Part shown: in pieces, positions 2 to 61,051 of the stretch
Layout: every line of letters starts with the position of its first letter
Position numbering within the stretch: position 1 is the stretch's first letter
Virus record (IMG/VR): IMGVR_UViG_3300045988_082633
DNA from: a virus
DNA length: 64,000 bases
Strand: one strand, 5' to 3'
Notes under the pieces: model-generated
Seen by the model: the letters and a program-made list of their open reading frames with translations, nothing else
What the model was told of the DNA's origin: nothing
Database searches by the model: none
Position numbers and translations under genes: made by a program

Positions 2-196
2 TATTATTGTGATGGAATTGGCCAAAAACATATTGCTGGTACTGCTTGGGGTGCTTATAATGCTGTTACAGGATTTTATTGTAACGTAGCTAACCTTGAA
101 GGAGAGAAGCGTGTTGAATCTCTCCTTTACGGGGGAGCTAATAACAATATGATTAAAGCTCTTAATTCTGCTAATGTTATTCTTAATGCTGCTTAA
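2..196 (+). CDS. 3' end of a gene entering from the left edge; C-terminus resembles DUF932 / phage-plasmid-like (TIGR03299-type) proteins
   Basis: The frame starting at nt 2 is open to TAA at 194-196: ...HIAGTAWGAYNAVTGFYCNVANLEGEKRVESLLYGGANNNMIKALNSANVILNAA*. The AWGxYNAVT...SLLxGxA pattern matches my recollection of DUF932 C-termini (no search possible). It is not in the ORF track because it has no start codon in the window. It contains GC-rich motif copy 1. Confidence 0.45.
   Translation, partial: YYCDGIGQKHIAGTAWGAYNAVTGFYCNVANLEGEKRVESLLYGGANNNMIKALNSANVILNAA
121..142 (+). repeat. GC-rich dispersed motif, copy 1 (variant TTACGGGGGAGCTA)
   Basis: Plus strand tctcctTTACGGGGGAGCTAat. It lies inside the DUF932-like ORF and is read L-L-Y-G-G-A-N. 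Confidence 0.9.
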
Positions 197-215
197 AGTG
201 TTAAAACTAGGTTTA

Positions 216-237
216 CTACCTCCCCCGTAGAAAAGTG
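216..237 (-). repeat. GC-rich dispersed motif, copy 2 (GGGGGAGGTA family)
   Basis: Plus strand ctaCCTCCCCCGTAGaaaagtg. It is intergenic and inverted relative to copy 1. Confidence 0.9.
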
Positions 238-260
238 AAAATATAAATAACTCAAAATAA

Positions 261-308
261 TACTGCAAATATTTGGTGATATAAATTATATTCCTTATAT
301 TTGCAGTA
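261..308 (+). promoter_or_regulatory. canonical Bacteroides-type promoter (TTTG-N20-TATATTTG, 272-303) embedded in a perfect 12-bp inverted repeat
   Basis: TTTG is at 272-275, followed by a 20-nt spacer and TATATTTG at 296-303, 41 nt before the dut ATG. tactgcaaatat (261-272) and atatttgcagta (297-308) are perfect reverse complements. Confidence 0.7.
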
Positions 309-343
309 TTACTATTTTAATTAACTTTTTAATAATAATAACA

Positions 344-2010: not shown

Positions 2011-2055
2011 TAATCATAAGTTACAAAGCAAATATAATTTTGACATCTATAGTTG

Positions 2056-2126
2056 TTGTCCAAGGAGGATTTGAACCACCACTAACAGAACCAAAATCTG
2101 TTGTGCTACCATTACACCATAGGACA
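2056..2126 (-). tRNA. tRNA-Gln, anticodon UUG (71 nt, CCA not encoded)
   Basis: The minus-strand sequence folds by hand into a cloverleaf: TGTCCTA TG GTGT AATGGTA GCAC A ACAGA TTTTGGT TCTGT TAGT GGTGG TTCAAAT CCTCC TTGGACA A. The acceptor stem is 7 bp with one T-T mismatch, the D stem 4 bp, and the anticodon stem a perfect 5 bp. The anticodon loop is TTTTGGT with U33 and anticodon TTG. The T loop is TTCAAAT. The U1-A72 pair fits Gln tRNAs. Confidence 0.8.
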
Positions 2127-2833: not shown

Positions 2834-2863
2834 GTAGAAAGGTTGAATTAACAACCTTTCTAC
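2834..2863 (-). terminator. perfect 12-bp hairpin just after the giant gene stop (terminator-like, no clear U-tract)
   Basis: gtagaaaggttg (2834-2845) and caacctttctac (2852-2863) are perfect complements, with loop aattaa. The right arm is part of GC-rich motif copy 3, and the stop codon of the 4264-aa ORF is at 2875-2877. Confidence 0.4.
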
Positions 2864-2874
2864 GGGGGAGCTAG
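2852..2874 (+). repeat. GC-rich dispersed motif, copy 3 (GGGGGAGCTA family)
   Basis: Plus strand caacctttCTACGGGGGAGCTAg. It abuts the stop codon of the 4264-aa ORF, and its left part is one arm of the hairpin at 2834-2863. Confidence 0.9.
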
Positions 2875-5800
2875 TTATTTAGATATAAAATCAGCTATAT
2901 CTTTAACAGGTACTATAGAAAGCATATTATCACCAAGTTTATAATACTTGTTACTACGTTCAAGTCTTTCAACCATATTTATACTATGATAAATAGGAAT
3001 ATTACGACGAATTTGAACCCAAAATTTATTATCACCTTTATATAGACCGGTAGAATAATAAGGATCAAATTCATCACCCTGTATCATATATTGTGAAATA
3101 AGACCCATAGTACTTAGTAAATCACTAATTGAAGTTTGAGCTGCTATAGGACTAGACCAAAGCTTTTTACCTTCAGCATAAACACCAACAGGATTATACA
3201 TAAATGACTCAGAGGCAAGACGGTCAGCTTCATACATCATAAGATTGTAAATAATATTATGTTCTTTATCATCATCGCCAGCTGCATGTAATGCAATAGC
3301 AAGACAAAGAGCAGAAGCAACACCACAGAAATCACAAAAAGCACGTCTAATATTTGCTCTATCATATTCATTCATCATGTTATAATATGTTTTAGCATGA
3401 AGAGCAAATTCAACATAGTTCTTAACAATGTTCTGTACACCTTTAACTGCTTGAAGATTAGCATCAGTCATATTATTATCTTCTTGAAGTTTCTTAGTAA
3501 AACTCCGTTTATGAAGTGGTAAAGCAAGGAAATCTTTAATAGAAGCGTAACAACCTTTTTCTATAGTTCCACGTTCTTCATTAAAATATCCTTGTCTACG
3601 ATAACGTTTCATAATACCAGGATATATATGTTTATGATATTGCATTACAAGTCCACCCCACCAGTAAGATTCCCATTTTGCAGCACCTAGTTTGTCATAT
3701 ACACCATGTATCTTTTTATTAACAGAAATAACTCTTCCTTTAAAAGCTCCAAGAATTCGATAAGCTTCATCATCGATTTCAGCAAATATAGAACCGTCAA
3801 CAAAATCAAGAGTACCATCATTATCAAGTTTTAATTGACTCATAACAGTAGGATGTGTTTCGTCATTATTAAACTCTTCTTTTGCTTTAGCTTGATATTC
3901 TTTACGTTTATTTACAAATTTCCGTTTATCTTCATTGTTGAAATAAATATTTACAAATTCAGTAGTTAAATCTTTTCTGAACCAAGCATATTCTTTAACA
4001 TCGTTAGCATTAGAAAGTTCTTTTTTCTTAAATGCTTCATAAAGTTTACGTTGTTCAGCTGTCATAACATTTTGAAGAGCTTTTTCATTAGCATCACGCA
4101 TATATTCAGCTTCGTTAACTGCATCGTATTTAACTTCACCTGTAGCCTCATCTACTCTTTTAACAAGTCTATGACTGTACATCATAGCAAATAAAGTACT
4201 ATTTTGCATCATATGTTCACCCATAGCTTGAGGACTAAAAGCTAAATCTCTTGCACGTTCTAAATATGTAGCCATATCAGGAACAGTTACAACACCATTT
4301 ATTTCAGCAAAATCAACTACATTCATAAATTTAACAATAGCACTAGGAAGAGAAGATGCTTTATCACTGTACATATCTGCCATAAAACTAGGAATACCAG
4401 CTCTCCAAGTATTAAGTCCCATATGCCATGTTTTATTACCGAAATATTCTCTAGCAAAAACTTCTCCAAGAATTTGAGTACTACCTGCTGTTACGTTAGC
4501 AATACCACCAGTAACATTAAGCATCATAAATTTAGCAGAAGTTAAACTTTGAAGAATATTTGCAGCACGAGTTAAACCATTATTAGGTCTTTTCCATTGG
4601 TCATATACAAGTCTTCTAATCCAATTAACATATTGTTCTTGAAGTCTTGTATCTTTTTTAGTTACATAAGTATCTTGACCATCTATAGTTCTTTTTCCTG
4701 TTTTTTGTAAATCATTAAAACCTTCATTTTTAACATATACATTAAGTTTATCAAGCATATTCTTTGCATAAAATAACATATATTTATTATCTTGAATTGC
4801 ATTAAAATGTGCTGCTTTTTGAATAAATTCTTCCATTACAGATTCCCAATTATCATCAAGCATATTACGATGAATTTCCATATTTTTAGCTTCAGCGTCT
4901 GCTTTATCTTTTTCCCAATCATTTACACGCTTTTGATAACTTTTATCTGTTTCATTTTCTTCTCGTACAGGACGTTTTCTATCTATTTTGACACTATCTT
5001 TTGATTTAAGAAGAGTAGTCATTGGCATATCTATTGTTGTATCTGTAGCATAATCTATTTCAGAATCAGTATACCAATCTTCTTTACCAGTAGAACTATT
5101 TATCCATCCTACAAGTTTAGCAACTTCTTTTGCAGTATGTTTAGCATCAAGCTGTTCATTTTTCTTTCTTAAAGGCATATATCCATTACGAAGAAATTGT
5201 TGAGATTGCATAGTATGACAATTCTCTTTAAGAATAGTTTCAAAATACTCTTTTATTTCATCTTCAAACTTATTTCTATTAACTGTAGAATTATATGAAG
5301 CATTATTGCCTTTGTAATTAGCAGCTGTAGAAGAAAATTCTTTATAATCATGATTACGACAGTCTCTATTTACACTAAGAAGATCATCATCATCGTTTAT
5401 TATAGGGTTTCCATTAACATCAAGTCCTGTTTTAATAGTTCTTTCAGTTTGATTCCAAGCAGGTTCATACTCCATATTAGTATTCCACTTACCATCATCA
5501 CCTACTTCTCCAAACTCAAGAGTAGTCCAACATTGAAGAGGTTCTACGGCATGAGTGTAAGGATTGTAAATATGATTAGCAGCATACCATTTTCTAAATT
5601 CTTCTTTACCTTTAGCCTGAGCTTCTTTATATGCTTCATAATAATACATAGTGTTTCTACTTCTAGTATAATTACGAATAATGTGTAAAGCATCTGTTTT
5701 CTTTTTATCAACAAAAGTATTATCACCAGTACCATCAGCCTTATAACCTTTAGGTACAGCATATCCATAAATATATCTATTAGGAACAACTATATCATTT

Positions 5801-8800
5801 CCGTTTTCATCTTCTACTATTTGAGTATTAAGAGACAACCACATACGATAATATCGTTCTCCACGCTGTTTAGCTAAGTCTTCTTGTTGCTGAAATTTAG
5901 CATCATCGTATACAAAATCAACATTATCTTTTATAAATTCGTGAACACTTTTTGCATTAGTTGTAGAACCTTTTTCATATTTCTTTATATTTTCAAGTTC
6001 TTCATATAATTTTTTAAGTGTTTTAATTTCATCTTCAGATAATTCTGCTGTATGAAGAGTGCCATCATGTGTAGTATAATGAGCTTTAAGTATTTTATTA
6101 ATTTCATTTACTTTAGCAATATATTCATCATTTCTAGCACCAGATATAGTCATTCCTTTATAAAAGTCTGCTGTAAAGATAGTATCGTCTGTAGGAGAAT
6201 TACTAATTAAAGTTCTATCAGTAAATACTTGTCCTTCTCTAATGCCATAATTTATAAGTTGTTCTTCATATAATTGTTCAATATTTTTTTCTGTTAGTTT
6301 ACGACCATCTATAACACCTCTTTCATCATAAGCATCTTGTTTTTTAGCAATTATAGAAAGAAGTTTACGACCTTGTTTACCTTCTCTAAATACTTTAAAT
6401 GCACTATTAACAAGGTCCATAACTCCTTCTGTTGCAGTATAACGAGCATTATGTGCAAGCCATTCTTTAGCTTTTACATAGTCATCATGTTTCATCAACT
6501 CTGCAATAGGAGTAGTAATGTTTCCATTATCGTCTCTCATTTCATAGTTGTTAATAATATCAAGATTTCTATCTAGTTCTTCTTGAAAACCAAATTTAAC
6601 AGAATCATCAAAAAACTCACTATTAAGACTATTCATGTCTTTAAGATATTTTTGTAGAGCATAAGAACTATCTAAACTATAAATAATTCGGTCTTTATCT
6701 TTAAAAGGATTATTTGGATCATCCTTTTGATATTTTTCTATAAAAGTACCACTATTTTGGTCATATATATAATTATTAGTAAGATTATCTATTTGATGTT
6801 TAACTTCATCAAGTTCTTGTTTATAATTATCTGCTAAAACTCCGTTAGTTATATGACTAAGTAATTCTCTACGTCTATCAGAAAGTTTCTTATATTCTGA
6901 ATAAACAAGAGGATACTTATCAATCATATATTCTTCAATGTCTATTTTTCTTTGATAATATTCATCTATAACAGGCTGATTAACATTTGCTAGTTTCCAT
7001 TTATCATATGCTAATTTTGCTTTAAGATGTTCTATGCTTCCGACACCATGTTCAGACTTTGCTAAAGAAATATTTTCTCTAAGTTCAGCAAGTTTATCAA
7101 GGAAAGCTTGATTATAGTTTTGTATAAATTTACCATTTTCATCTATAATTTTTTTCCAATCAATATCTACACCTGCTTCTTTAGCTCTTTTCTTAATATC
7201 AGCAATTTTCTTTCTAAACTCTTTAAGTTGCTTAATAGCAAGATTTTCTTTAAATCGAATATCAGACATTACTTCCTTAGAAACAATTTGAATAAGTGGA
7301 GAAGATGATTCTTGTAAATCACCAACCCAAGCATCAAACACAGCAGCACTACGATAACCGTCTAATACACCAAGAATATTTTGTTGAATTAGAGGATCTT
7401 TACTAAGTTTAGCAAGATATTCATTTGCAAACAGTTTTTCAGTATCTGCAATAATTGTAGAATTTTGAAGCTCACCTATCTTTTTTTTAATTCTTTTAAG
7501 GAAAGAACGTATAGATTCATCTTCTGAGTCAATATTAAGGTTATCTATTATAGCAAAATTTTTAACAAGAGCACGAGCATCAAGAATTGTTTTTAGAAAT
7601 CTTTGTCTAACAACAGGTTTTGATTTAATAGCAGCAATCGCTTCAGGAGTGTTTATAGCAAATGTTTGCTTGTTATCATCTGTTATAAAATATTTCATAT
7701 CAGTAGACAATGTATTAACCGTTCCCTCTATATACTCAGCTGTAGTTTGAATAACATCTTTCACATTAGCTCGTACAGACGGAGCAGAACCTGTTATTTG
7801 TTTATCTTGTAAAAACTTAAGAGCTTTAGCAGCTTCAATGTCACCTTCAGACTTTCTACGAGAAAACATAACAGACATAGCTTGTACACCTAATGTAGTA
7901 GAATCAGGAGTATCATTCACTTCAGTTACTGAAGAATGCATAACATCTACATCTTCTTCATAAGGAGTAATCATGAAAACATCATGAACTGTATATCCAG
8001 CATCTTTTGCTTTCTGCATTATATCCTGAATATCTTTATTAGATTCTTTTACAGCTTTATCTTTATTTTCTTCTCCAATATATTTTTTATTAAGTCTAGA
8101 AAGATTTACTTTTTGAATAACATATTTTCTACCATTTATAGTTTGAATGCTACCACCATTTATACCAGGTGTAGTTATATAATTAGCTAAAGCTGCACTA
8201 CGAAGATATAAAGTAGAGAAAGGATTCTCACTAAATCTAGCTGTAACTTTTGCTATAACATCTTCAAAACCTCCGGTATTAACAGTATTTTTATCATTTA
8301 TATTAAAAGACTTTGCAAAACCTGTTGCTCGTTTAATAGCTTTAGGTTTATATTTATCTCTTTCAGGTTTATGAGCTTCCAATATTTGACCAAAGTCTAC
8401 AACATTATTTCCATATATTTCATTACGTTGTGCTTCAGTTATATTTCCTGTTTCATTAACAATATCATCTATTTGTTCTTGAATAATTCTATCTCTTTCT
8501 TTAAGTTGATCTCTAAAGTCATTTATTACACCAAGATAATACTCTTCTCTAAGATATTTGTTATTTGTAGGATTAGATGAAAGATCGGAATTTTCATTTT
8601 CTTCAAGAGTATTTACAGGATAAAGAACATAAGTTCCATTAACATTTGTAATTCTATAAAGAGTAACTCTATTATCAAAAGATAGTTTTACATAACTATT
8701 TGCAGTCATAGGATGATAACTCCTATCATTTGGCGTAGCATCATAAACAACTCCATACTTTTCTGCTAATGTTTCATTTGAGATAGTAATTATATAATCA

Positions 8801-11800
8801 GCTCTAGGAGTAAGTTCAAAATGCCAATGTCCTTGTTCATCCTTTTTCTTATAAACCTTTTTACCAGTTATAAAAGTAGAATTAGAATGACTACGAATAT
8901 AATTACGTCTTAGTTGATTTGTACTTATAGCATTATCTTTTATAGTAGCAACAGCTGTAGAAATATCTGATATAATATTTGTTTTATCTGAAAGAAGAAC
9001 ACTATTTTTAATTACTTTATTAACAGCATTCTTTTTCATTTTAAAACCTTCAACTACAAAGCCATATTTAACAACATCCATAGCAGCAAGAGCAACTAAA
9101 GGATTATCATTAAAGAAACATTTTTCAAATTCATTATAAACAGTTTCAATATCTTCATTATTTTCCACATATTGAATAGTCTGTTTTCCTGCATTTGAAC
9201 CTTTATTAAATAAAGACACATTTATATATTTAAATACGCCACTATCTTCAAATCTTTCTTGAATATAATGTATTTTTTGAGCAGGACTTAAAGTAGAAAA
9301 TTGTTGAATTTCTAACTCACTAACATGATTTATATCTGCTACTGTAAATTCAATAGTATTACCATTTTCGTCTTGTACTTCAAGATTTGGAGTTTTTCCA
9401 TATCCATAAATACGAGCACGCTCTTCATCTACATTTGTTTCAGAATATACAAATTGTCCATTTTTATATGTAACAGCATTACTTATAGCTCTAGCTTGAC
9501 TATAAATGTAATTAAGAATATAATTTTGAAAAGCTTTATATTCTTTTTCATTCATAGTTCTACCATTACTAAATAAATTAGCAAGTTTTTCTACTTCATG
9601 TCTAAATTCATCAGACTGTGTAGCAAACAAACTTCTATTTATTTTAATAGAAGGAGCAGTAGCATATCTTAAAAAAGCATTAAGAGGGCGATATGCTGAA
9701 TCTTCAATAGAAGTATGTTGCATATAATAATCTAATCCTCTATCAACATTAGGATATATAGCAGAAATGAAATTTTTATTACCTACAACAAGAGATGGAT
9801 ACTCATCATGTACAAGATCTTGAATGTCATCAAACACTTTAGCTGTAGCATATATTGTTTGCTTAGCACCAAACTTATCAGGATTACAAACTCTAGCATA
9901 AGCAGATACATCATTTGCAAGATAATTAAGCTTATTATATTGAAGAATAACACCTAAATCATAAAGTAATTGTTTCTCTTTTCCTACGGGGGAGCTAGTA
10001 TCAAACTCACCACTTTGATTTATTCTATCTCTAAGTTTAGAAGCAGAAATATTAAGTTTGTTAATATTTTCTATTTTAGTATCAAGAACATATTTATTGG
10101 GTTCAATACAATCAAACAGTTCTGCTATATCAGAAGAATAATCTTTAAGTTTTTCTAGAATTTTATTAACACTAATTTGTTCAGGAAGGGAAATTCCTTT
10201 AATTTTACATATCTCTTTACATATTTCTTTAATAGCTTCATTTATAACATTTCCAGATTCTTCTCCGTAAATAGACTTGTTAGCATTATATATATTTACA
10301 ATTCTAGTAACACCAGGTTGCATCATAAATGCAATAGCGGTTTTATAATCAGAACCAATATCAGGGAAAAGTTTATATACTTGGAAAGTAAAATCGTTAA
10401 CATTAGGTATAGAACCTTCTTTTACAGCATCAAGAATATGAGCTGTAGTTTGAGAAGAATATGCTGTTAGAATTTTACCAACAACATTTTTATTATCTTC
10501 ACTCCAGCCTAATGTATTATGAGTTACAATCCAACCACTTTCATCTTTAAGAGGTTTAACATTTTTAAAATGTTTTTTAAGTTCACTTTCTTTATAACCG
10601 TCTTCTTTTTTATAAACAATAGAAACAGTTTTATTGGAAGAAATAGTAGGTTGAACTGTGTTACATATAGAACAGAAAGTATCACGAGTAACACTAAATG
10701 CTTTAAGTTTAGCACCACTCATAACATCTTCTTGATATGCTGCTTGGTCAAAGAAATCATAAGGAGAACGAGCTTTTCTAAGTTTAGCAAGTTCTGGATT
10801 TATAACTTTATCTCTATCATGTATAATATCATCAAAGTTAGAACGAGAAAGATTTTCCTCAAGAGAACTAGGATCTGAAAGAATCTCAATCATAGTTTGA
10901 AGAATCTCGTTATTACGACCTTTAGTCTTTCTTTCAGAACGTTTGTCTTCTTCATTGTAAGAAATCTTTTCAAGCTTTCCAGTTTCTTTATTTATTTCTC
11001 CACTAAAATGAATACCATAAACAGAGTCAATATCAAAGTCAGAACCTGTTTGAGAAACCCAATCATCAGGAACAACAATAGTAGAACCGAGAGCATCATC
11101 TGTGAATTTAACAACTTTCATAACACAAATAGATTGTTTACCTTCAGTAGGAATACGGTATCCAATCATTGTATCAAGTCCTGAGTCTTGTAGTTCTTTT
11201 AAAAGCTCTTCATCTGTCTTAAGAGTACCATCTTCTTTAGTATATTTTAATCCTTTAAAATTACTCTTTGGAAGCATTATTTCTACATAAGGCTTACCTT
11301 CTGGATGATATTGTAGCTTATCACTATATTTACGTTTTTCTACTGTATCACTAATTGTAGACCAACCAACATTAGTGATCTGAGCAGCATGCCAACCAGG
11401 AAGTTTTTGACGAGTAATACGATTATTGAACATGCTCTGAGCAATACTTTCGAGCTTTGTAGATACATTACTCATATAAGTTGGCATCATAGGAACACCA
11501 TCTCTATCAAGAGTAACATAGTCCATCATATTGCTATCAAGACCAAGACGAGCTACTTCATCTTTAAGCATATCATAAAGAATAGCTTGGTCAAAAGCAC
11601 TTATTTCTCCATTCTCATCCTTTTTTATATGAAGTTCTTTCATTAGATTCTCATAACTATCAACGATATTTTGAGAATAAAGCTTAAAGAACTTTTCTTT
11701 AAGATCATACAGGTCTTTATTAGATTTATCAATATTATCTACAATTTTTTTCATTATCTGAATACCTGCTTTATTTTCAGCTGCAAGGTGCTGAGGAGTT

Positions 11801-14800
11801 TCTTGCTGAGTATAAAGATAATTATAATTGTAATATTCTGTAGCATGAACTGCGTTAGCTCTAAAGTCTGCTATATTTTTATCTGTTATATTTCCTTCAT
11901 TATCCCATATTGTAAGAACATTACATTTACCTGCTTTAGAAGTTTCTTCTGTATTTAGCTGGTCAATATTAAATTCTTTCATTAAATTATACACTTGTTC
12001 AAGTTGTGTACCACGAACAAGACGAGGAACAATTACAAATTCAGCATTTTTAATTTGACGAGGAACAATTACACCAAGTTCTGCATTATAATATTGGTCA
12101 TAATAAAAGTTTTTCTGAACTTGAATAAATTCACCTATTGTTTTAGCATCAAGAGGCTTACTTTCATCAAGAACAGCATCAATTAATTTTTTGTATTGTG
12201 GAAGTTGTCCACGAGCAGTAATACGTCGAACCCATTCTTCAAAAGTAATATAAGATTGTGCATCATTTACAGTAGTATTTGCATAACCAGCCATCATGTT
12301 AGCTGCATGAATTTTTGCATTTGACTCACTCATACCAGACTCAACAAGAGCATCTATTAAAGTCTCAGCAAGAACACCTGGCTTTTTAAACTGATAATTA
12401 CCATTTTCATCTTTAATAAGATTACCATCTTTATCTGTAACAAAAGTTCCAATAGTATCACCAGTTCTAATAGTATTTTTAATTGTTACTCCTCTAAATT
12501 TACTATATTGATTTATTTTAACTTGTGAAGTAACACCATCTACTGAAACATGATTGAATGTCGTATTATTCAAAGGACTATCTACTATAGTAGGTTCTTG
12601 AGATAAGTCCATAGCATAATCTACAATACCATAAGGAACACCCGAACCTTGTGCTTCTTTAGCTCGCTTCAGAAATGTTTGTGTATCTTTATAGAACTTA
12701 GTATCACCTTCAAATAAATCATTAAAGTTAATATACATAAGTCTATGATTAAGTGCAAATTCAGCAGCAGTAAGCTTAGTAAGCATTCCTTCAGGAATAA
12801 AATTTTTATAAACTTCAAGCTGTTGAACAGCTCTACCAGAATATGCTACAATAAATTTAGAAATTTGTTCATTTATAATAGCATTTTGTTCATCTGTAAG
12901 TTCTACTTGTACGCCATTGTTTGTAGTAGTTGTATGAAGATATGTATTATTAGCTCCCCCGTAGAGAAGGTTGAAGCTCTTTAGCATATCATCAGCAAAA
13001 TTAACAACTTCATATTTACCATTCTTATTAAGAATAGTTGTTTTAAATCTATCACTAGTAAATACATCTCCTACTAAAGCATATTCTCCTGTAGAAAGCT
13101 TCTTAATAATTTTACCTTTCTTTGTATGATAATTATTATAAAGCTTACGAGCAGTTTCAGAATCATTTGCATATCCTGGTTTAAATATAGGCATTCCATA
13201 AGTAGGTGAATTTACATCTGTATCAAGACGAACTTTTCCACCTTCATTTTCAAATAAAACATTTATAGCTGTAGCCATATCTTGAAGCTCTTGTATAAAT
13301 GTGTGTCTAAATTGTTGAAAAATAGGATGATTAATGTTACATCCGTCTTTTGTAAACAAACCAGTAACTGAATATTTAGGAGCTTTAATTATAAAATTCT
13401 TTGGAGCATCAGAAGGAATACGCATAAAATATTCAGCAAATATTATCTTATCTGCTTCATCTTGTTGACTATAATCATCTTCTGTTTTAAAGAAGTTTAT
13501 AAATGCGGTTGTAGTATAATCTCCTCTACTCATTTCTGAATAAAGAACATTTTTACCATTTACAACAGTTCCTGCTCCACTAAACAATGTATTTTGCAGC
13601 AATCTGTGAGCATAAGGAGTAGGAGTAAGTTCTTTGCTTTCAGGATCTTGAGTAAATAGACCATAATTAATAAGCTTTCCAGTATCATCACGATGTTCAA
13701 TCATAATATTACTGAAATCATATTGTCTAGACTGTCCTTTATATTTACCAAAATTTTCTAAAGCAGTTTGATTTTTGAGAGTATTTATAATATTAGTAAT
13801 CATACTGTTATTAAGAACATCAGATGATTGATTACCATGAACATTTCTAGAATTAAGTTCTGTTTTAACTAGACTAAATTTAACAAGAGCATCAGCAAGT
13901 TGGTACGCTGCTTGTTGTGTTTCTTTACTAACATAATCAATAGCATATAATTGAGAAAGATTTTTCTCTATCTCATCAAATACTTCTCTTTTAACAGGTT
14001 CTCCATTTTCTAACGCTTCATTTAAATGAAACTTTTTACTATAAAGAGCACTTAAATCCGCTTGACGGCTATCATAAACTCTTTTACTATTTTCAGAACC
14101 CTTTATTGTAAGTTTAGCTATATTTGTTAAATTAGATAAAGCATCAATCTGATTTTCAGAATTTATATAATTTATAATAGCTTTATCTGAAATAGTAGGA
14201 TAATATCTTTTAAGAACATCATATATTTCAGTTGCTATAGCTTTTACATCAGAATTAAAAGAATCTATATCTTCTTGTTCTATTCCGGTTCCTTCGTCAA
14301 TTTCACTCTTAAACTTACGTAACTCTGATAATTTTGTATCTATACTAGTAATCATATCAGAACTATATTCAGCTTCCGAACGAATACTTGTCGCTTTAGC
14401 ACTATTAAAGAACTCAAACTTCAAAGTAGTAAGTTTATCAGCAGTTCTATTAGTAGTCCTACTACTAAACTCACCACTAGCATCTGTAGTTTCCATTTTA
14501 CTTACTACAATTTTACTAAATGTACGATATACTTCAAAAGCAAAATTAAGATTTTGTTCAAGGTAATCTGCAAATTGACTAAAAGATGCCATTCCAGGAA
14601 CATTATTAGCAATTTCTCTAATACTTTCTATCATAGTAGCTCGATTAGTGAAATTACCATAAGAATATAAAACTGTAATACATTGAGCAGCAGACATTGT
14701 ATCTGCTATACCAAAAGCATTATTTGTATCTTGAACATATTTACCATCAGCTTTTTCTCCATTAAGAAGTTTAGGTAAACTTGAAAAATATCCTCTAATA

Positions 14801-35744: not shown

Positions 35745-35802
35745 TTTTTATGTATTTTTAACTTTTAGATTATATATAGAATCTTCATTATTATATAAAA
35801 TA

Positions 35803-35836: not shown

Positions 35837-35874
35837 ACTTAAAATTAACATCACAATTATAAACAATTAAACTT

Positions 35875-53645: not shown

Positions 53646-54929
53646 TTAAAGAATTATATCATCCATGTTTGTCTTACCATCTTGTTTTTTAACAAGTTTA
53701 ACAGTTTTAGTAGAACGATTTTGTTTAGATTTGACAATAAGTTTACGAACTTCGTTTTCCTTAACTGCCATATCAATCAAATCTTTATAAGTTCCTCCTG
53801 TAAACATAAGCCAAGCATCGAGCATTTCACGAGCCATATATTCATCATCAGTAAGTTCAGCTAAATCTCTCTGATACCCTGTAATCTTACTACCATCTTC
53901 TTTTTCTACTGAAGCATTAGAAATATAATTAAAGAAATCATTAGGAGTAATAACTACTTTTTTACCATTAATTTCTTTTGTAAAACTATCAGGAATTTTA
54001 TAACCGTTAATAACACGTCCATTAATCATATTATTAACTTTTTCCCAATATGCTTTAAGATCTTCTGCTTCTTGTTGACGTTGAGCAGCAGCTTGTGTTT
54101 CAATATCTTTACGATATGCTTTATCTTTATCAACAAGAGCTGCAAGTTGAGTTTTAGCCTCATCATAAAGACTTCCGCTATCTCGAAGATATTTAATATA
54201 GTTATCATTAAGACTCTTATTACCGAACTCAGCAGCAGCCATCTTAATTACAGCAACAAGTTGACTTTCATTATCTTTATCTAATGTAATTCCACTACGA
54301 TCTGGAATATCACCAAAACCTTTAGGAGTACCTTTAAGCTGTACATAGTCTTGGAATTGTTTAAGAAGAGGATTATCTTGATAAAGACGATTGATTGCTG
54401 CTTGTTGAAGTTCATTAGAACGAAGATTTATAACAGAATCAATATAAGATTTAACTCCATTTGCATCTTCTGTAAACTCAATAGGAGTTCCATTTTCATC
54501 GTTTATCGTAATACCTACTGCTTCTTGAATAGAAGAAAGACTGAGTGGTTCGTTATCACTACTATCGTTAATATCAACTGTTTTAAGCCACTCAGCTACA
54601 TCTGCTGCTGCTTTAAAAACATTTCCTTCAGCATCAACAACGTCTCCATTTTCAGAAACAGTATAAGTAACACCATCAACCTCAATTTGATCTCCAACAT
54701 TTAGCTCCCCCGTAGAAGCGTCGCCATTACCATTGTTGTTGTCATTGCCATTGTTGTTACCATCTTTATTGTTATTACTATCTGTAGTAGGATCATTAAT
54801 ATCTACTGTATCATTACCATTAAGATGAGTAACATCATCTTGATTATTTTGAGCACCACCATTATTGTTGTTATCGGTGTTAGTATTTTGACTACCTGCT
54901 CCTTCAAAATCAATGTCTGTAACTGCCAT
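53646..54929 (-). CDS. scaffold-like protein with an Asn/Gly/Asp low-complexity N-terminus (about 427 aa from ATG at 54929; the track ORF starts at GTG 54977)
   Basis: The gene lies between portal and capsid. It is acidic and helical, with coiled-coil-like stretches (AAAQRQQEAEDLKAYWEKV). The -7 box of the promoter overlaps the GTG listed in the track, so MAVTDIDFEG (ATG 54929) is the more likely start. It carries motif copy 12. Confidence 0.4.
   Translation of the reverse strand: MAVTDIDFEGAGSQNTNTDNNNNGGAQNNQDDVTHLNGNDTVDINDPTTDSNNNKDGNNNGNDNNNGNGDASTGELNVGDQIEVDGVTYTVSENGDVVDAEGNVFKAAADVAEWLKTVDINDSSDNEPLSLSSIQEAVGITINDENGTPIEFTEDANGVKSYIDSVINLRSNELQQAAINRLYQDNPLLKQFQDYVQLKGTPKGFGDIPDRSGITLDKDNESQLVAVIKMAAAEFGNKSLNDNYIKYLRDSGSLYDEAKTQLAALVDKDKAYRKDIETQAAAQRQQEAEDLKAYWEKVNNMINGRVINGYKIPDSFTKEINGKKVVITPNDFFNYISNASVEKEDGSKITGYQRDLAELTDDEYMAREMLDAWLMFTGGTYKDLIDMAVKENEVRKLIVKSKQNRSTKTVKLVKKQDGKTNMDDIIL
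54702..54725 (-). repeat. GC-rich dispersed motif, copy 12 (GGGGGAGCTA family)
   Basis: Plus strand TAGCTCCCCCGTAGaagcgtcgcc. It lies inside the scaffold-like ORF and is read G-D-A-S-T-G-E-L-N. Confidence 0.9.
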
Positions 54930-54976
54930 AATTTTATTACTATTTTTAGGATTATTATTAGAATATCTAATCATCA

Positions 54977-55007
54977 CAAAGATAATACTTTTTGTTTTAG
55001 CTACAAA
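54977..55007 (-). promoter_or_regulatory. canonical Bacteroides-type promoter (TTTG-N19-TATCTTTG) ahead of the scaffold-like/capsid genes
   Basis: On the minus strand, TTTG is the complement of 55004-55007 and TATCTTTG the complement of 54977-54984, separated by a 19-nt spacer. Confidence 0.65.
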
Positions 55008-58159: not shown

Positions 58160-58160
58160 A

Positions 58161-60449
58161 TTAAAACCATGCTCTTTTTAATATATTTTTATTATTACTA
58201 TTATCATCTTCAGTTATTTTTTTACGATGTGCTAAAAGTTTAGCAGCTTCTATATCACAAAGACGCCATTGAAGTGCTCGTATAATCATTTCAGAAACTC
58301 TATCAAAGTTACCAAGACTATTCCATTTTTTAAGTTCAAGAATAGATTGATAATCATATATTGTTTGAAATAAATAAATGTCGTTTCCTAAATCATCTTG
58401 CCCTACAACAGTATAAAGCATTTCTTTAAGTAAACGAAGACCTTCAAGTTTCTTTGTACCATCTCCCATGTTAACACCATAAGTAGACACAACATTACCT
58501 TTAATAGAAGTATCCCATATTTGTACTGGGTCTTTCATAAGATATTTAAGTGCTTTCCACTTACTAAAATTACTTACAGTTTCACCACGGTTTATCTCAA
58601 CTCCTGTTGTTCCAATACAATTATAATATATTGCAAGAAGCAAACAAACTTTATCAGCTTCTTCAAGTTTTTCAGGACGACCATAATATGCTGCAACAAG
58701 AGCTGTTTTAAATCCATTATATTGACATGGATTCATCCAAACTTTAATACTATTATGAGAATGCTTATTAGTAATGAGTTTGTTTTCTTTATTAACACCA
58801 ACAGGGTCATAACTAATAGAATATAGTCCAGGAGGTGTTCCTATTATTTGTTTTCCGTTTTTATCTATATGTGGAACTTGCATTGGATTAAACCATTTAC
58901 GAATACAACCATGAGGATGTTCATGTCCTTTACGAGGTACTCCTTCAATCCAATCATAAAAGTCTATATTATGTCTTCCTCCTTCAGCTTCTATACGAGA
59001 ATTACTTTTAAATATAACTTTTCCATTTTCTTCAAACAGCCAACCATCAGAATAAAATTTAAAGCTATTATCAGTTCTAAGACGTTCTTCCCAAGCCATT
59101 AGTTCTTCACTACTAAAAAGATTTTCTGTAGCAGAACTAAAAGATTCAGCTGGCATAAGAGCATATTGTCCAAGATAATTTATATAATCAGCAAAAGTTT
59201 TAGCTGTTTCTTTTTTAAGCTTTCGTTCATTATATGCAATTCTAAGTCCAAGTTCAATATTTGAATTACCATCTTGGTCCATAGCATATTGATCTCCAAT
59301 TTGACCTTGAAGACCCCAAGCATAAGGTTTGAAATATCCACAAATTTCATTTCTACTATCTTTATCCCAAACATTTTCAAAAGGCATAAAATGATAAGAT
59401 AAAGGAGAATAAAAATTTTGTTCAAAAGTTTGCATATTTCCAGAAGTTGCAGTACCCCAACAAAAAAGATTTCCAGTAACATAACTACCAGTTCTCATAG
59501 CAGGTTCTGTAACTCCCATAAAATCATCAAAGTTTTCCATAGTAGAAAGCTCTTCTACTTTAACATTAACTGCATCTTTACCAATAGCACAATCAGGATT
59601 ATTCATTGCAGATACAGTAAAAAGTGCAGAATTCCAACTTTTAGGACTAACTACTCCATTAGGAAGTTTAAAACCAAGACGAAAATTTTCTTTATCTGTA
59701 GATAGAATACCTTTTACAAAAGGTGTTTTAGTTTCAAAGAAACGAAGATTATTAATAGTGAAATCAGTTAAACCTCCTGTAGCTACAAGATATTTCTTAT
59801 CAGCAGCAACATGTATTTGAACTTTACGAGGTTGTAAATTTATAGTATTAGCACTATCGGCAGCCATAATATAAGAAAAACCACCACGACGAGTTTTATC
59901 TATTATAAGATGAAAACCGTTTCTTATAGCAAATTCCATTACATGAAATGTCCAAAACTGAGCATCTATAAACTTACTAAAATCATAATGTTTCTTACCT
60001 ACACTAGCTTTAGAAGTAGACTTAGTTGTATTTTCATCAAGCTGCTCAATCATAGTATAGTTAAGAAAATTATAATGAGAACCAGTAATTCTTATATTTT
60101 CAATATTACCATTACGTAAAAGACAAGGCATACTAATACCATGTTTTCTACGATATTCTTCTCTTTTTCTAAGTTGACGATGTGGAATAGTATCTTCTTT
60201 AAGAAAAGTATATTTTTTATTTTTACGATAAAAATCAGCCATTTCAGTAAATAAATGAGTATTAACAAATTTATCATCAGGCTGTATATTAAGAAGAAAA
60301 CCACCACTATCACCAATGAGAAAAAGATTATCAGGGTCATCATATCCAGCTTCTGTTGCTGTTCTATAATGACTTTTATCCTCAGATAAATATTGTAAAA
60401 ATGGATAACTTTTTATTACTTCTTCTACATTCGTTTCAATTTTCATCAT
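58161..60449 (-). CDS. terL: terminase large subunit (762 aa)
   Basis: IIDKTRRGGFSY is Walker-A-like, AVNVKVEELS is Walker-B-like, and YSISYDPVG looks like the first acidic motif of an RNase-H-like nuclease. The gene lies just upstream of the portal gene, and its size is typical of crAss-like TerL. Confidence 0.75.
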   Translation of the reverse strand: MMKIETNVEEVIKSYPFLQYLSEDKSHYRTATEAGYDDPDNLFLIGDSGGFLLNIQPDDKFVNTHLFTEMADFYRKNKKYTFLKEDTIPHRQLRKREEYRRKHGISMPCLLRNGNIENIRITGSHYNFLNYTMIEQLDENTTKSTSKASVGKKHYDFSKFIDAQFWTFHVMEFAIRNGFHLIIDKTRRGGFSYIMAADSANTINLQPRKVQIHVAADKKYLVATGGLTDFTINNLRFFETKTPFVKGILSTDKENFRLGFKLPNGVVSPKSWNSALFTVSAMNNPDCAIGKDAVNVKVEELSTMENFDDFMGVTEPAMRTGSYVTGNLFCWGTATSGNMQTFEQNFYSPLSYHFMPFENVWDKDSRNEICGYFKPYAWGLQGQIGDQYAMDQDGNSNIELGLRIAYNERKLKKETAKTFADYINYLGQYALMPAESFSSATENLFSSEELMAWEERLRTDNSFKFYSDGWLFEENGKVIFKSNSRIEAEGGRHNIDFYDWIEGVPRKGHEHPHGCIRKWFNPMQVPHIDKNGKQIIGTPPGLYSISYDPVGVNKENKLITNKHSHNSIKVWMNPCQYNGFKTALVAAYYGRPEKLEEADKVCLLLAIYYNCIGTTGVEINRGETVSNFSKWKALKYLMKDPVQIWDTSIKGNVVSTYGVNMGDGTKKLEGLRLLKEMLYTVVGQDDLGNDIYLFQTIYDYQSILELKKWNSLGNFDRVSEMIIRALQWRLCDIEAAKLLAHRKKITEDDNSNNKNILKRAWF

Positions 60450-60450
60450 A

Positions 60451-60840
60451 TTATTTCAGTAATAATAATAAAGTTACAATAGATAATACTATTCCTCCAC
60501 CAATAGTAATGTTTCTTTGGTAAACAGCTTTTTTATAAGCTTTATTTAACAAAATATTACTACTTTTATAATGTTGTATAACAATACTATCGTTTACTAT
60601 AATACTTTTAAGACTTTTATTAATTTTCTTTTCATAATCAAGTTCTATAAGTTTACTATTTGCTAATCTTAAATCATTATAAGAAATAAGAACTGAATCT
60701 TTAACAATAGTATCTTTAACAACCACACCCCCCGTAGAAGAGTTTGTACAGGTTAAGTGTGTATTATTTGCCAATAAGGTGATAGAACAATTTAAGAGTA
60801 CTATCATTGTCAAGGCTTTTAATTTCAATAGATTTAACAT
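60451..60840 (-). CDS. two-anchor envelope protein (N-terminal signal/lipobox-like segment with Cys, C-terminal TM), unimolecular-spanin-like architecture, 129 aa
   Basis: The N-terminus is MLNLLKLKALTMIVLLNCSITLLA and the C-terminus is ITIGGGIVLSIVTLLLLLK. The ORF overlaps the upstream 95-aa ORF by 77 nt in another frame and carries motif copy 13. Confidence 0.4.
   Translation of the reverse strand: MLNLLKLKALTMIVLLNCSITLLANNTHLTCTNSSTGGVVVKDTIVKDSVLISYNDLRLANSKLIELDYEKKINKSLKSIIVNDSIVIQHYKSSNILLNKAYKKAVYQRNITIGGGIVLSIVTLLLLLK
60721..60747 (-). repeat. GC-rich dispersed motif, copy 13 (GGGGGGTGTGGTT family)
   Basis: Plus strand aaccacaCCCCCCGTAGaagagtttgt. It lies inside the 129-aa ORF and is read T-N-S-S-T-G-G-V-V. 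Confidence 0.9.
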
Positions 60841-61051
60841 TTTTAATACTATCTAAATGTTTAACTTCTATAATTAGTTTATTGTTATCTTTAGTAATAG
60901 AGTCTATTTTGAGTTCTTCTACGGGGGAGGTAGTTGATGTGCTCTTTAAAGTTAACTGTTTTACTATCGATATTAATACGATAAACAATGGTATAATTAC
61001 CATTATAATTATTTTTATAACAAGTAAGTTATTTATCTTTTTGCATTTCAT
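60764..61051 (-). CDS. single-pass membrane protein (95 aa), holin or i-spanin candidate
   Basis: MKCKKINNLLVIKIIIMVIIPLFIVLISIV is an N-terminal TM segment. The gene lies between the cell-wall enzyme candidate and the two-anchor protein and carries motif copy 14 (antisense orientation). Confidence 0.4.
   Translation of the reverse strand: MKCKKINNLLVIKIIIMVIIPLFIVLISIVKQLTLKSTSTTSPVEELKIDSITKDNNKLIIEVKHLDSIKNVKSIEIKSLDNDSTLKLFYHLIGK
60911..60936 (+). repeat. GC-rich dispersed motif, copy 14 (GGGGGAGGTA family)
   Basis: Plus strand gagttcttCTACGGGGGAGGTAgttg. It lies inside the 95-aa ORF and is read T-S-P-V-E-E. It is inverted relative to copy 13. Confidence 0.9.

Follow-up and report, generated by a model that had tools for sequence, protein, structure and literature searches.

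A polar, lineage-specific DNA signal, very probably read by a protein, tiles each strand of Intestiviridae crAss-like phage genomes

USS/DUS signals are found as dialects at conserved positions, in both orientations and as intergenic inverted pairs, lie in tolerant protein regions and are spaced more evenly than random. Known Chi sites, which are read as ssDNA, are 5–8 nt long; we know of no precedent for one with 20–28 conserved nucleotides. Known consensus sequences for site-specific nicks are asymmetric, 9–20 bp long and present in up to ~14 copies per genome, and those of phages tf (TACT/RTGMC) and phiKMV (CCTA/CTCCGG) share a TAC/CTAC-like element. The T7, T3 and SP6 promoters are resembled by the motif described below in count, length and lineage co-variation, and mini-hairpins of the d(GCGAAGC) type are reported at the origins of ssDNA phages. 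The signal analyzed here is apparently undescribed so far: no account of it was found in the literature searched, consistent with the statement in the initial annotation of this DNA that no described crAss-like phage element matches it.

The window is a stretch of 64,000 nucleotides from a gut phage (IMG/VR record IMGVR_UViG_3300045988_082633), in which TACGGGGG has 14 matches against 0.05 expected, and CTACGGGGGAG, with at most one mismatch, has 11 against 0.02 expected from dinucleotide shuffles. The TACGGGGG matches lie at 128+, 222−, 2861+, 9985+, 12956−, 17555+, 19831−, 28042−, 35195+, 36156−, 43495−, 54707−, 60729−, and 60920+. The over-representation, all of the coordinates and the three flank subfamilies (GGGGGAGCTA, GGGGGAGGTA, and GGGGGGTGTRGTT) had been reported in the initial annotation and are borne out here, as is its remark that the window has no G or C run of at least five outside the motif copies. 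Its estimate of the extent was also accurate, with 150 unique copies from relatives giving a conserved span of approximately −6 to +12 around TACGGGGG, weaker to −9 (~19–22 nt); the motif is a short linear site with no body past ~22 nt. The same motif family is found in cultured isolates and in independent assemblies of pig, mouse, goat, and human origin, which rules out the assembly artefact considered at the outset, and the motif is real. The copies, together with one hairpin spotted by reading the sequence, are as follows.

119–141, plus strand: copy TTACGGGGGAGCTA, sense, in the 3′-terminal part of a DUF932-family ORF that is truncated where the window begins, reading LLYGGAN; convergent partner of the next copy.
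216–238, minus strand: copy CTACGGGGGAGGTA, intergenic, upstream of the dUTPase gene (344–1033); orthologous to cr271 68771 and cr8 113.
2838–2860, no strand assigned: hairpin GAAAGGTTG-aatta-CAACCTTTC, directly 3′ of the giant RNAP ORF stop; the 5′ flank of the following copy forms its right arm, and cr271 has a compensated equivalent, as read from the sequence.
2852–2874, plus strand: copy CTACGGGGGAGCTAG, intergenic, just beyond the stop of ORF 2875–15669 on its 3′ side and antisense to that gene; position kept in cr271 (66209−) and cr8 (3399+).
9976–9998, plus strand: copy antisense in the giant RNAP ORF, reading SSPV; conserved in Obtuvirinae, within an 8-codon insertion (RNAP column ~2508) missing from Crudevirinae.
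12950–12972, minus strand: copy, sense, in the giant RNAP ORF, reading LLYGGAN.
17546–17568, plus strand: copy GGGGGAGGTA, antisense, in the 2597-aa RNAP-associated ORF, reading TSPVE.
19825–19847, minus strand: copy of the GGGGGGTGTAGTT variant, sense, in the 2597-aa ORF, where it falls in a low-complexity linker and reads PSTGGVV.
28036–28058, minus strand: copy, sense, in ORF 26563–28476, reading LLRGSY; conserved in cr271, ctcc615, and several IMG/VR relatives.
35186–35208, plus strand: copy, intergenic, upstream of the 228-aa ORF 34395–35081, by synteny a candidate counterpart of the p-crAssphage IHF-like gene; corresponds by synteny to cr271 31906−.
36150–36172, minus strand: copy of the GGGGGGTGTAGTT variant, sense, in ORF 35875–36297, reading PSTGGVV; ctcc615 has this copy, cr271 a degenerate form, and two IMG/VR relatives a deletion of it, with a 12-nt gap in relatives at site 36156.
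43489–43511, minus strand: copy TTACGGGGGAGCA, sense, in the 1515-aa ORF 42209–46756 (a variable gene), reading FFTGEQ.
54701–54723, minus strand: copy, sense, in ORF 53646–54977, reading ASTGEL; invariant in 10 relatives with flanks 66–90% identical, and kept as far as p-crAssphage and Rudgehvirus, with none at the aligned position in cr8.
60723–60745, minus strand: copy of the GGGGGGTGTGGTT variant, sense, in ORF 60451–60840, reading SSTGGVV; conserved in cr271, cr8, ctcc615, and Rudgehvirus; forms a divergent pair with the next copy.
60911–60933, plus strand: copy GGGGGAGGTA, antisense, in ORF 60764–61051, reading TSPVE; restricted to the window's own lineage.

All seven Intestiviridae crAss-like phage genomes sampled, the prototypical crAssphage among them, carry the signal, at 14–31 copies each and with a length of ~20–28 bases. 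Its spelling is exemplified by CTTCTACGGGGGAGCTA in the window and cr271, CCTTTTACGGGGSGGCTAGAG in cr8, CCATCCTCYACGGGGRGTCTA in p-crAssphage, CCTTTACAGGGG in Rudgehvirus, and CCTTTAYGGGGGAA in crAss002, with a core common to all dialects of Y-A-Y-R-GGGG, in which the variable position following A-Y is a purine in each lineage sampled, and the change of dialect is concerted across copies. These dialects had been missed in the initial annotation. ΦcrAss001 (Steigviridae) has no such motif, cr127_1 (Crevaviridae) has one unrelated to that of the Intestiviridae, and the motif was not repeated in any of the bacterial genomes scanned.

Several copies occupy precisely orthologous residues in proteins that share only 24–39% identity between the phages. 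A sense site occurs at RNAP alignment column ~1209 (window copy 12950–12972) in 6/6 genomes from two subfamilies, and an antisense site at the orthologous residue of gp45-like column ~2317 (window copy 17546–17568) in five of six, the exception being cr8, where the copy is ~20 alignment columns off in a gapped region. The initial annotation had suggested looking for presence/absence indels at the copies in orthologue alignments; instead, sites are positionally orthologous across all three Intestiviridae subfamilies sampled.

Within ORFs the window copies read (S/F)TG(G/E) five times, LYGG twice, LLRG once and, antisense, SPV three times, with three further copies intergenic (222, 2861, and 35195); the earlier ORF, frame, and peptide assignments hold for all 14. 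The motif is read in three frames when sense and is also read antisense, and among relatives it is invariant while the flanks are 66–90% identical and contain indels. Synonymous codons follow the lineage dialect (Pro CCT in Rudgehvirus, giving TACAGGGG, and Val GTG in p-crAss, giving CACGGGG), and the residues flanking the motif inside genes are dictated by it. Selection on the nucleotide sequence rather than on a peptide, as first proposed from the window, is strongly supported and extended by these data.

Each strand is tiled evenly on its own at about one site per 5–9 kb, with a CV of gaps of 0.26–0.43 compared with ~0.9 expected (p ≤ 0.001 on many strands), and the spacing of both strands merged is less regular. 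The smallest same-strand gap is at least 2.0 kb and opposite-strand gaps go down to 30 nt, with 32/32 close pairs inverted; tight pairs show a modest excess of divergent (14) over convergent (5) arrangements, which is partly non-independent because some pairs are orthologous. Orientation switches number 96 against 67.6 expected in the pooled genomes (z = 5.1, overstated because the genomes are related); few orthologous sites are common to cr8, p-crAss, Rudgehvirus, and crAss002, each of which is significant alone (crAss002, 22/28, p = 0.002). Motif orientation is independent of gene direction, sense and antisense copies both being common in both genome arms, and of the copies inside ORFs ~40% run antisense to the genes around them, in either arm and with the same regular spacing. 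A separate even array on each strand implies that each orientation is needed separately, with no stretch of either strand far from a site.

Taken together, the copies are very probably a polar DNA signal that is read by a protein and is neither mobile nor RNA-structural. They would be cis-acting, strand-specific recognition sites read as a linear sequence of ~20–28 bp; we infer that the reader is a protein, probably encoded by the phage. This is the class that the initial annotation had listed first (recognition sites for a phage DNA-binding, nicking, or modification activity). Its second candidate, promoter, pause, or processing sites, is retained only as initiation sites untied to gene expression, because orientation ignores gene direction.

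Our preferred mechanism, a tentative one, is that RNA or primer synthesis starts at the sites and would prime either strand for DNA synthesis. Docking would be at the G-free, pyrimidine-rich 5′ half, the conserved A-Y and then R would lie at or adjoin the initiating purine, the G-run would keep the first hybrid stable in a genome of 30% GC, and tight divergent pairs would be bidirectional starts. An apparent resemblance of the architecture to T7-group promoters (…TATA|GGGAGA) and pppAC-type primase starts is counted for initiation, as is the purine after A-Y in every lineage sampled. In p-crAss, divergent pairs are located just upstream of both repL genes, one of them in the region of a published origin prediction, and d(GCGAAGC)-type mini-hairpin cassettes follow some of the p-crAss and crAss002 sites, 16–30 nt downstream. 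The absence of these cassettes from the window's own lineage counts against priming. The primase had no match in Pfam, NCBIfam, or PDB, and a primase or polymerase requiring a 20–28-bp site every ~7 kb would be unusual for lagging-strand synthesis. Site positions show no strand bias relative to published origin predictions, so that there is no support for simple theta replication with site-specific priming of the lagging strand.

Chi-like end processing and site-specific nicks are close rivals of priming. In the first, which we consider doubtful, a correctly oriented site would stop or switch end degradation by a translocating helicase-nuclease or resection machinery and promote recombination, the reader being the phage RecD-like SF1 helicase, PD-(D/E)XK exonuclease, or RecT, or the host AddAB/RecBCD. 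Intestiviridae genomes appear to be headful-packaged and circularly permuted, so that any position can be a physical end and both orientations would have to be available everywhere; two strands evenly tiled apart, regardless of gene direction, are what ends arising anywhere predict. The per-strand spacing is on the scale of E. coli Chi, the core is G-rich as in known Chi sequences, a RecD-like helicase is encoded, and so long a motif would keep the signal out of the host chromosome, in line with the bacterial genomes scanned. Motif presence also tracks packaging mode, crAss002 being reported as pac-headful and permuted and the motif-less crAss001 as having fixed short DTRs, a correlation of one phage per family. 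The 20–28 conserved nucleotides, however, far exceed known Chi sites, a Gam-like nuclease inhibitor is annotated in these phages, and an identity step marking recombination hotspots was not found at the sites (p = 0.2). A Chi-like role also gives no reason for the association with repL, origin, and mini-hairpins or for the divergent excess in tight pairs.

Single-strand nicks as in T5, phiKMV, and Pseudomonas phage tf, which a phage nickase would introduce while the DNA is replicated or packaged and the phage ligase would seal after injection, are an unlikely explanation. Length, asymmetry, copy number, and the TAC/CTAC-like element all resemble known nick consensus sequences, strand-specific action suits per-strand tiling, all these phages have an annotated ATP-dependent DNA ligase, and in cr271 a NUMOD4-HNH-NUMOD1 protein, with the architecture of nicking homing endonucleases, adjoins it. 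The described systems nevertheless mark one strand only, whereas both are equally used here; inverted pairs 30–100 bp apart would give staggered opposite-strand nicks and a weaker duplex; and HNH genes are neither syntenic across lineages nor universal among motif-bearing genomes. For crAss002, a reported PhageTerm analysis gave one pac-type terminus and not ~28 read-start peaks, which is weak evidence against nicks, and no report of nicks in Crassvirales was found in the literature searched.

An orientation-independent dsDNA-binding array, either a USS/DUS-like packaging tag, a condensation or architectural protein (phage IHF/HU-like), or an insulator, appears improbable. The evolutionary pattern is very USS/DUS-like, down to the way in which the motif fixes the local peptide, and the structural module of Intestiviridae has two annotated IHF-like genes, but IHF/HU-type proteins also occur in the motif-less crAss001. 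Orientation-blind selection would even out the merged spacing and make tight pairs redundant, contrary to the strand-wise regularity and exclusively inverted close pairs.

We regard as similarly improbable that the copies direct a phage or host RNA polymerase in gene expression, whether as promoters, terminators, or pause sites, or that they act as RNA, for example through a C(UACG)G hairpin or long-range sense/antisense duplexes processed by RNase III. The similarity to T7, T3, and SP6 promoters fits the former, the p-crAss intergenic sense copies examined lie 33–270 nt upstream of gene starts, and one p-crAss divergent pair is at the divergent arm junction; the frequency of antisense copies argues against it, and the described crAss-like middle and late promoters are host sigma-type, with no motif found for the virion RNAP. 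As RNA, the G-strand fold CUCUUC-UACG-GGGGAG is more stable than shuffles in 5/6 lineages and the 2838–2860 hairpin overlaps a copy, but the UACG hairpin fails in cr8, shows no compensatory changes and pairs no better than register-shifted controls, the arms of close pairs are no more alike than unrelated copies, and Rfam matched tRNA only.

The third initial candidate, a miniature selfish element (REP/REPIN-, RPE-, MITE-, or mitochondrial GC-cluster-like) spread by insertion and persisting where the frame was kept, is very improbable and largely refuted: the motif is a GC-rich island in an AT-rich genome, contains GTAG/CTAC, coincides in places with short indels (RNAP column ~2508 and site 36156) and in a subset of p-crAss and crAss002 copies seemingly holds an inserted GC-rich hairpin cassette, but a mobile REP/MITE-like element was rejected because there is no body and residues are orthologous at such low identity, terminal repeats and target duplications are lacking, dialects change in concert, no scanned bacterial genome has multiple copies, no transposase/RAYT-type gene was seen among the annotated products of relatives, and transposition does not produce even tiling.

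At the level of genes, the alignments indicate that positions have been kept since the three subfamilies split, with a spelling that differs by lineage, and hence some phage machine probably reads the signal. The specificity of a phage-encoded reader would have drifted together with its sites in each Intestiviridae lineage. A need for coverage everywhere would mean that sites had to be accommodated in the tolerant linkers of long essential genes.

A scan of the 64-kb window recovered 11 matches to CTACGGGGGAG with at most one mismatch and 14 matches to TACGGGGG, against 0.02 and 0.05, respectively, expected from shuffled sequence, counts that exclude chance as the source of the motif, a polar GC-rich DNA signal of ~20-28 bases. 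An artefact is likewise excluded, the motif being found in independent assemblies and in isolates. The coordinates given for the copies in the initial annotation were all correct, as were the expected excess over shuffled controls, the division of the flanks into three subfamilies and the assignment of every G/C run of at least five bases in the window to a motif copy. The open reading frames, frames and peptides also proved right, with five copies translated as (S/F)TG(G/E), two as LYGG, one as LLRG and three, in antisense, as SPV, and with three copies intergenic. The window is crAss-like phage DNA of ~30% GC with minus-strand genes from ~2.9 kb onward, and its closest annotated relative is cr271_1 (Intestiviridae, Obtuvirinae, Hacihdavirus), with ~75% nucleotide identity over the aligned parts and 17 motif copies on both strands and in both genome arms. 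The following features of the window are referred to here.

2055-2126, minus strand: tRNA-Gln gene (anticodon TTG), in a gene-poor stretch of ~1.2 kb separating the giant RNAP ORF from the dUTPase arm
2838-2874: hairpin of 9-13 bp (read by eye), one arm of which is the 5' flank of a motif copy, directly 3' of the stop of the giant RNAP ORF
2875-15669: giant RNAP ORF
60451-60840, minus strand: small ORF with one copy of a divergent motif pair
60764-61051, minus strand: small ORF with the other copy of this pair, 189 nt away

The tRNA-Gln gene has a syntenic counterpart in both cr271_1 and cr8_1, and in the window it is the only match to reach an Rfam gathering score, so that the motif is not a known RNA family. 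The hairpin arms are GAAAGGTTG and CAACCTTTC in the window and GAAGAGATAGAAT and ATTCCATCTCTTC in cr271 (~66180-66225), the stem being kept by different sequences; the structure looks terminator-like, but without a T-run. The two small ORFs overlap by 77 nt and neither has a PHROG match.

Beyond the window, a scan of IMG/VR with TTCTACGGGGGAGCTA returned 78 loci on ~25 contigs, mostly crAss-like contigs of ~90 kb with several copies apiece. In a position matrix built from 150 unique copies, information is limited to about -6 to +12 around TACGGGGG and extends more weakly to -9 (~19-22 nt), with no flanking conservation outside these limits. The motif is thus a short, linear, asymmetric site without an element body. 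Among 50,697 GenBank phage records, the window's version was found only in cr271_1 and ctcc615. Each of the remaining Intestiviridae genomes sampled carries a version of its own, a lineage-specific spelling termed here a dialect, and these other dialects were detected by unbiased k-mer enrichment.

Motif dialects in Intestiviridae genomes (genome; dialect; copies)
cr8_1 (Fohxhuevirus); tACATACCTTTTACGGGGSGGCTAGAg; 28, including one terminal-overlap duplicate
ctcc615 (Wotdevirus); TTCTACGGGGGAGGTCG; 19
p-crAssphage (Carjivirus communis); tCCATCCTCYACGGGGRGTMTA; 31
Rudgehvirus jaberico; CCTTTACAGGGG; 21, plus 5 of TACGGGGG
crAss002 (Churivirinae); CTCCTTTAYGGGGGAA; 28

All dialects have in common a core, Y-A-Y-R-GGGG, that follows a G-free, pyrimidine-rich tract, and the position after A-Y varies but is a purine in all lineages sampled. 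Partial matches to the motif outside its copies have a background expectation already below 1, too low for any avoidance of them to show. The pentamer TACGG is ~2-fold rarer than expected outside the copies in all Intestiviridae genomes examined (18 versus 39 expected in p-crAss and 15 versus 43.5 in Rudgehvirus) and is also low in cr127_1; this deficit could reflect codon or CpG effects instead of avoidance of partial sites. No such motif is present in crAss001 (Steigviridae). The genome of cr127_1 (Crevaviridae) contains an unrelated GC-rich motif of ~40 nt, acgaatTTCGGAACACCTCTCGCCCTTGTGGCCATTA, in 10 copies on both strands, which are mainly intergenic, often just 5' of gene starts, and include inverted pairs; it may be an analogue restricted to this family, or else a promoter.

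Positions of acgaatTTCGGAACACCTCTCGCCCTTGTGGCCATTA in cr127_1
1770, 11356, 11913, 19700, 28699, 28871, 42041, 42232, 59325, 82342

When each window copy was used with ±400 nt as a BLASTN query, the motif was essentially unchanged in relatives whose flanks were 66-90% identical and contained indels, with only occasional degeneration or loss. At site 54707, CTACGGGGGAGCT is kept in 10 of 10 relatives and only the two bases 5' of it differ, in a few of them. A protein-anchored comparison extended these positions to more distant genomes.

Depth of conservation of window sites (protein-anchored)
12957, 17554, 54708, 60730: retained in other subfamilies, at protein identities of 24-39%
9984, 28043: conserved within Obtuvirinae
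36157, 60919: only in close relatives

The initial annotation had asked whether copies appear as presence/absence indels among orthologues; most window sites are orthologous between genera, four of them between subfamilies, and lineage-specific gains and losses are few. When the two giant virion proteins of six genomes were aligned, a sense copy fell at RNAP column ~1209 in every genome, and an antisense copy at column ~2317 of the RNAP-associated protein, encoded by the 2597-aa ORF, in five of six, that of cr8 lying ~20 columns off in a gapped region. The corresponding LYGG and SPVE peptides form small conserved islands within indel-rich variable linkers, and the synonymous codons and flanking residues at the copies track the motif version of their own lineage. 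For example, p-crAss uses the codons GAC ATC CTC TAC GGG GGG TCT ACA at a copy, Rudgehvirus encodes Pro by CCT, giving TACAGGGG, and p-crAss encodes Val by GTG, giving CACGGGG. This upholds the earlier proposal that selection acts on the nucleotide sequence and not on a peptide. Because codons and residues follow the lineage's motif version and the copies occupy orthologous positions, the DNA motif constrains the proteins and not vice versa. Alignment ends are in excess near the sites (20 versus 6.4), since the sites lie in variable linkers, and the step in identity across sites does not differ from that at control positions (p=0.2), so that no signature of recombination hotspots was detected.

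Same-strand gaps between copies are far more even than random (CV 0.26-0.43 versus ~0.9 expected), with p<=0.001 on both strands of cr8 and p-crAss and elsewhere on the better-populated strand, and spacing is less regular when both strands are merged (CV 0.55-0.81). The strands are used about equally (plus:minus counts of 6:8 in the window, 14:13 in cr8, and 13:18 in p-crAss), and orientation alternates, with 96 switches versus 67.6 expected in six genomes pooled (z=5.1, a significance inflated by kinship). Alternation is significant on its own in cr8 (p=0.0025), p-crAss (p=0.019), Rudgehvirus (p=0.012), and crAss002 (p=0.002), which have few orthologous sites in common. The minimum same-strand distance is 2.0 kb, and copies on opposite strands can be only 30 nt apart. 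Inversion is seen in all 32 pairs less than 1 kb apart, and tight pairs (<250 nt) comprise 14 divergent and 5 convergent cases. Sites are enriched ~4-fold in non-coding DNA (49 of 134, where 9-12% of the DNA is non-coding), and sense and antisense copies, relative to the local gene, are both frequent in both genome arms, with ORF-internal ratios of 11:10 in p-crAss and 8:6 in cr8. We conclude that each orientation is needed independently, that every part of either strand should lie near a site, and that the direction of transcription is of no account to the signal. It follows that the signal is polar and operates at the level of DNA.

A long, asymmetric, and unstructured motif that changes in concert with the lineage points to a phage-encoded, sequence-specific protein, by which we infer the motif to be read, and the tiling of each strand on its own suggests a transaction that is strand-specific. 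Two candidate readers, the first also considered as a nickase, were set aside. The HNH endonuclease encoded beside the ligase has I-HmuI-like domains, yet is neither syntenic nor universal in motif-bearing genomes, and the primase, whose gene is outside the window, has no Pfam, NCBIfam, or PDB match. Several replication genes are annotated in two pieces, namely the DNA polymerases of cr271 (gp67/gp66, 33336-36033) and cr127 (gp70/gp69, 12271-15205), and the Rudgehvirus helicase gene (19903-22242) is interrupted by a GIY endonuclease gene; the pieces are a few hundred bases apart or separated by a homing-endonuclease gene, which is consistent with the introns and inteins already described in crAss-like phages.

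What such a protein might do at the sites can be addressed only tentatively. It is possible, if still rather doubtful, that they are start sites for RNA or primer synthesis, in which a docking tract would be followed by A-Y, the initiating purine, and the G-run, an arrangement that parallels T7-group promoters and pppAC-type primase starts. This reading is favoured because of that architecture, the purine found after A-Y in every lineage sampled, the mainly divergent tight pairs, the pairs at repL genes, and nearby mini-hairpin cassettes. In p-crAss, divergent pairs lie directly upstream of both repL genes, one of them in the predicted-origin region. In p-crAss and crAss002, a GC-rich cassette of 30-40 nt, made of GCGNA pentamer repeats or d(GCGAAGC)-type mini-hairpins, is found 16-30 nt 3' of some copies, where it appears inserted between the left (…YACGGGGAGT) and right (GGTCTACTAAT) parts of the motif. 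Some of the cassette-bearing copies are within ORFs and some flank both repL genes.

Cassette-bearing copies
p-crAssphage BK010471.1, e.g.: 6025, 28077, 28176, 44953, 58727, 93667, 95868
crAss002: 4211, 47841, 86211

Neither Obtuvirinae, to which the window belongs, nor Rudgehvirus has the cassette. Mini-hairpins of the d(GCGAAGC) type have been reported at the origins of ssDNA phages. Known priming signals (RSF1010 ssiA/ssiB with RepB', the ColE2 origin with its Rep primase, and the complementary-strand origins of G4 and phiX) resemble the motif in being strand-specific; they are 30-40 nt long, with a dedicated, co-evolving primase, opposed pairs at origins, and d(GCGAAGC)-type mini-hairpins nearby. 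Unlike the motif, which is tiled along 90 kb, they are limited to one or two sites at the origin of a replicon, and they depend on defined hairpins, which the window's lineage does not have.

The main rival to this initiation reading is that the motif acts as a polar signal of the Chi type, which we consider unlikely, though still a serious contender. The motif-bearing crAss002 is packaged by a pac-headful mechanism and is circularly permuted, and the motif-free crAss001 has fixed DTRs; on a Chi-like reading, both orientations would be needed everywhere because any position of a permuted genome can become an end. Separate tiling of both strands is also compatible with polar action on a helicase-nuclease. 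Chi sites of RecBCD and AddAB are, like the motif, polar, strand-specific, G-rich, spaced at kilobase intervals, and taxon-specific, with a coverage logic for DNA ends. However, Chi sites are 5-8 nt long and are found in the host chromosome, with a bias to one strand in each replichore, whereas the motif is 20-28 nt long, balanced on both strands, and not repeated in bacterial genomes. The sites are unlikely to be multiple pac sites, because PhageTerm reported a single pac-type terminus for crAss002.

Site-specific nicking is improbable. The nicks of T5, phiKMV-like phages, and Pseudomonas phage tf share with the motif an asymmetric consensus (9-20 bp), a handful to ~14 fixed positions, and a similar TAC/CTAC element, and they are ligase-sealable and of enigmatic function. 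They are all on one strand, whereas the motif uses both about equally, and no report of nicks in crAss-like phages was found in the literature searched.

Two further explanations are each quite improbable. The first is an array bound irrespective of orientation. However, orientation matters for the motif, as seen from its more regular per-strand than merged spacing and the uniform inversion of close pairs. The motif can also be compared with the stoperators of Cluster A mycobacteriophages, in which ~20-30 dispersed asymmetric copies of 13-14 bp, within and between genes and with cluster-specific variants, are all read by one phage protein (L5 gp71). Stoperators have a single orientation to transcription and serve temperate-phage immunity, unlike the balanced and alternating motif, and no repressor, integrase, or lysogeny module is annotated in the relatives' records. 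The second, a signal for expression or at the RNA level, could draw on T7/T3/SP6-group promoters, which are asymmetric sites of ~23 bp in ~17 copies per genome, with positions conserved between related phages, a sequence that co-varies with the polymerase, and a pyrimidine-rich 5' part followed by a purine/G-rich start (…TATA|GGGAGA). Against it, sense and antisense copies of the motif are both common and alternate; T7-type promoters all point in gene direction and are mostly intergenic, whereas about half of the motif copies are antisense and most are inside ORFs. No T7-like single-subunit RNAP is annotated in the relatives' records, where the giant two-barrel virion RNAP is the sole one, and the motif differs from the crAss-like promoters that have been reported in phi14:2. 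The literature searched yielded no mapped transcription starts from any Intestiviridae phage. A UACG-tetraloop RNA hairpin folds better than shuffled sequence in five lineages, though not in cr8, and it shows no compensatory change, with pair counts equal to those of shifted registers; this fold was treated as a compositional by-product.

The selfish REP/REPIN- or RPE-like mini-element considered in the initial annotation is scarcely credible: the motif has no body, carries information over only ~19-22 nt, occupies orthologous positions, and is multi-copy in no bacterial genome scanned, and no transposase or RAYT is among the annotated products of relatives, on which grounds mobile elements of the REP/REPIN/RPE/MITE type were rejected. 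REP/REPIN, Rickettsia RPE, and yeast mitochondrial GC clusters are also short GC-rich repeats of AT-rich genomes, sometimes in-frame and with GTAG/CTAC, but they are palindromic or structured, mobile, and position-polymorphic, whereas the motif is non-palindromic, positionally ancient, and evenly tiled. A host repeat was excluded by scanning 185,579 bacterial and archaeal genomes, in which multiple copies occurred only on crAss-like contigs of ~60-97 kb in low-GC MAGs; the contig scan found the 16-nt motif repeated in no bacterial genome. JAFRAK010000011.1 (93.8 kb), CAJTXC010000001.1, and JAZOOK010000082.1 (~60-94 kb, several copies each), from MAGs assigned to Bacilli or Coprovivens, are in all likelihood crAss-like phage genomes binned there wrongly by their low GC, and CABUVO010000015.1 (97 kb, Porphyromonadaceae MAG, a single match) may be another such contig.

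In its evolutionary pattern only, the motif resembles the uptake sequences of Haemophilus (USS) and Neisseria (DUS). These also have a short asymmetric core in an extended consensus of ~20-30 bp, dispersed on both strands with more even spacing than random, intergenic inverted pairs, in-gene copies in tolerant regions with motif-dictated peptides, and dialects at conserved orthologous positions with proteome accommodation. In contrast, they occur in thousands of copies in competent bacteria, whose uptake machinery does not need each orientation separately, and the motif occurs in 14-31 copies in a phage genome, with strands tiled separately and no uptake process. The closest parallels are USS/DUS for evolutionary pattern, Chi for distribution logic, T7/T3/SP6 promoters for architecture and co-evolution, T5/phiKMV/tf nicks as enigmatic fixed phage sites, and stoperators as dispersed in-gene sites of a phage protein. 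The motif lacks at least one defining feature of each and is filed under the known kind "dispersed polar recognition motif". Motif strings were not found in the searched literature, and the phi14:2 promoter paper, the crAssphage phage-plasmid preprint (p-crAssphage culturing), the crAss002 paper, and the Crassvirales review contain no description of the motif; it thus appears undescribed, although present in prototypical crAssphage.

Our tentative proposal, which may well prove wrong, is that the motif represents a new class of phage cis-element, a genome-wide "tiling code" in Intestiviridae read by a dedicated, co-evolving phage enzyme. If true, a long polar signal would be spread evenly on each strand with the amino acids of giant essential genes subordinated to it, the specificity of the enzyme would co-evolve with all ~20-30 sites at once, and the code would govern how the DNA is replicated or its ends are processed, through site-restricted priming or a phage-private Chi system, for which no equivalent has been described in phages. 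The crAss-like Intestiviridae rank with the most abundant viruses of the human gut and include the most abundant one, and their replication, transcription, and genome-end biology are barely known. A 20-28-bp signal kept in place since the subfamilies split, which dictates codons and residues in virion RNA polymerase genes and is tiled separately on each strand, must, on these grounds, serve an important DNA transaction. The ~26-28 defined sites in each of two cultured phages, crAss002 of B. xylanisolvens and Rudgehvirus jaberico of B. cellulosilyticus WH2, provide an experimental handle and a route to the reader protein, to maps of priming, nicking, or end-processing, and to how permuted genomes replicate or stay protected. 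The dialects are of practical use in classifying Intestiviridae contigs and in recognizing phage contigs wrongly placed in MAGs, and they are a natural system for the co-evolution of a protein with many simultaneous targets.
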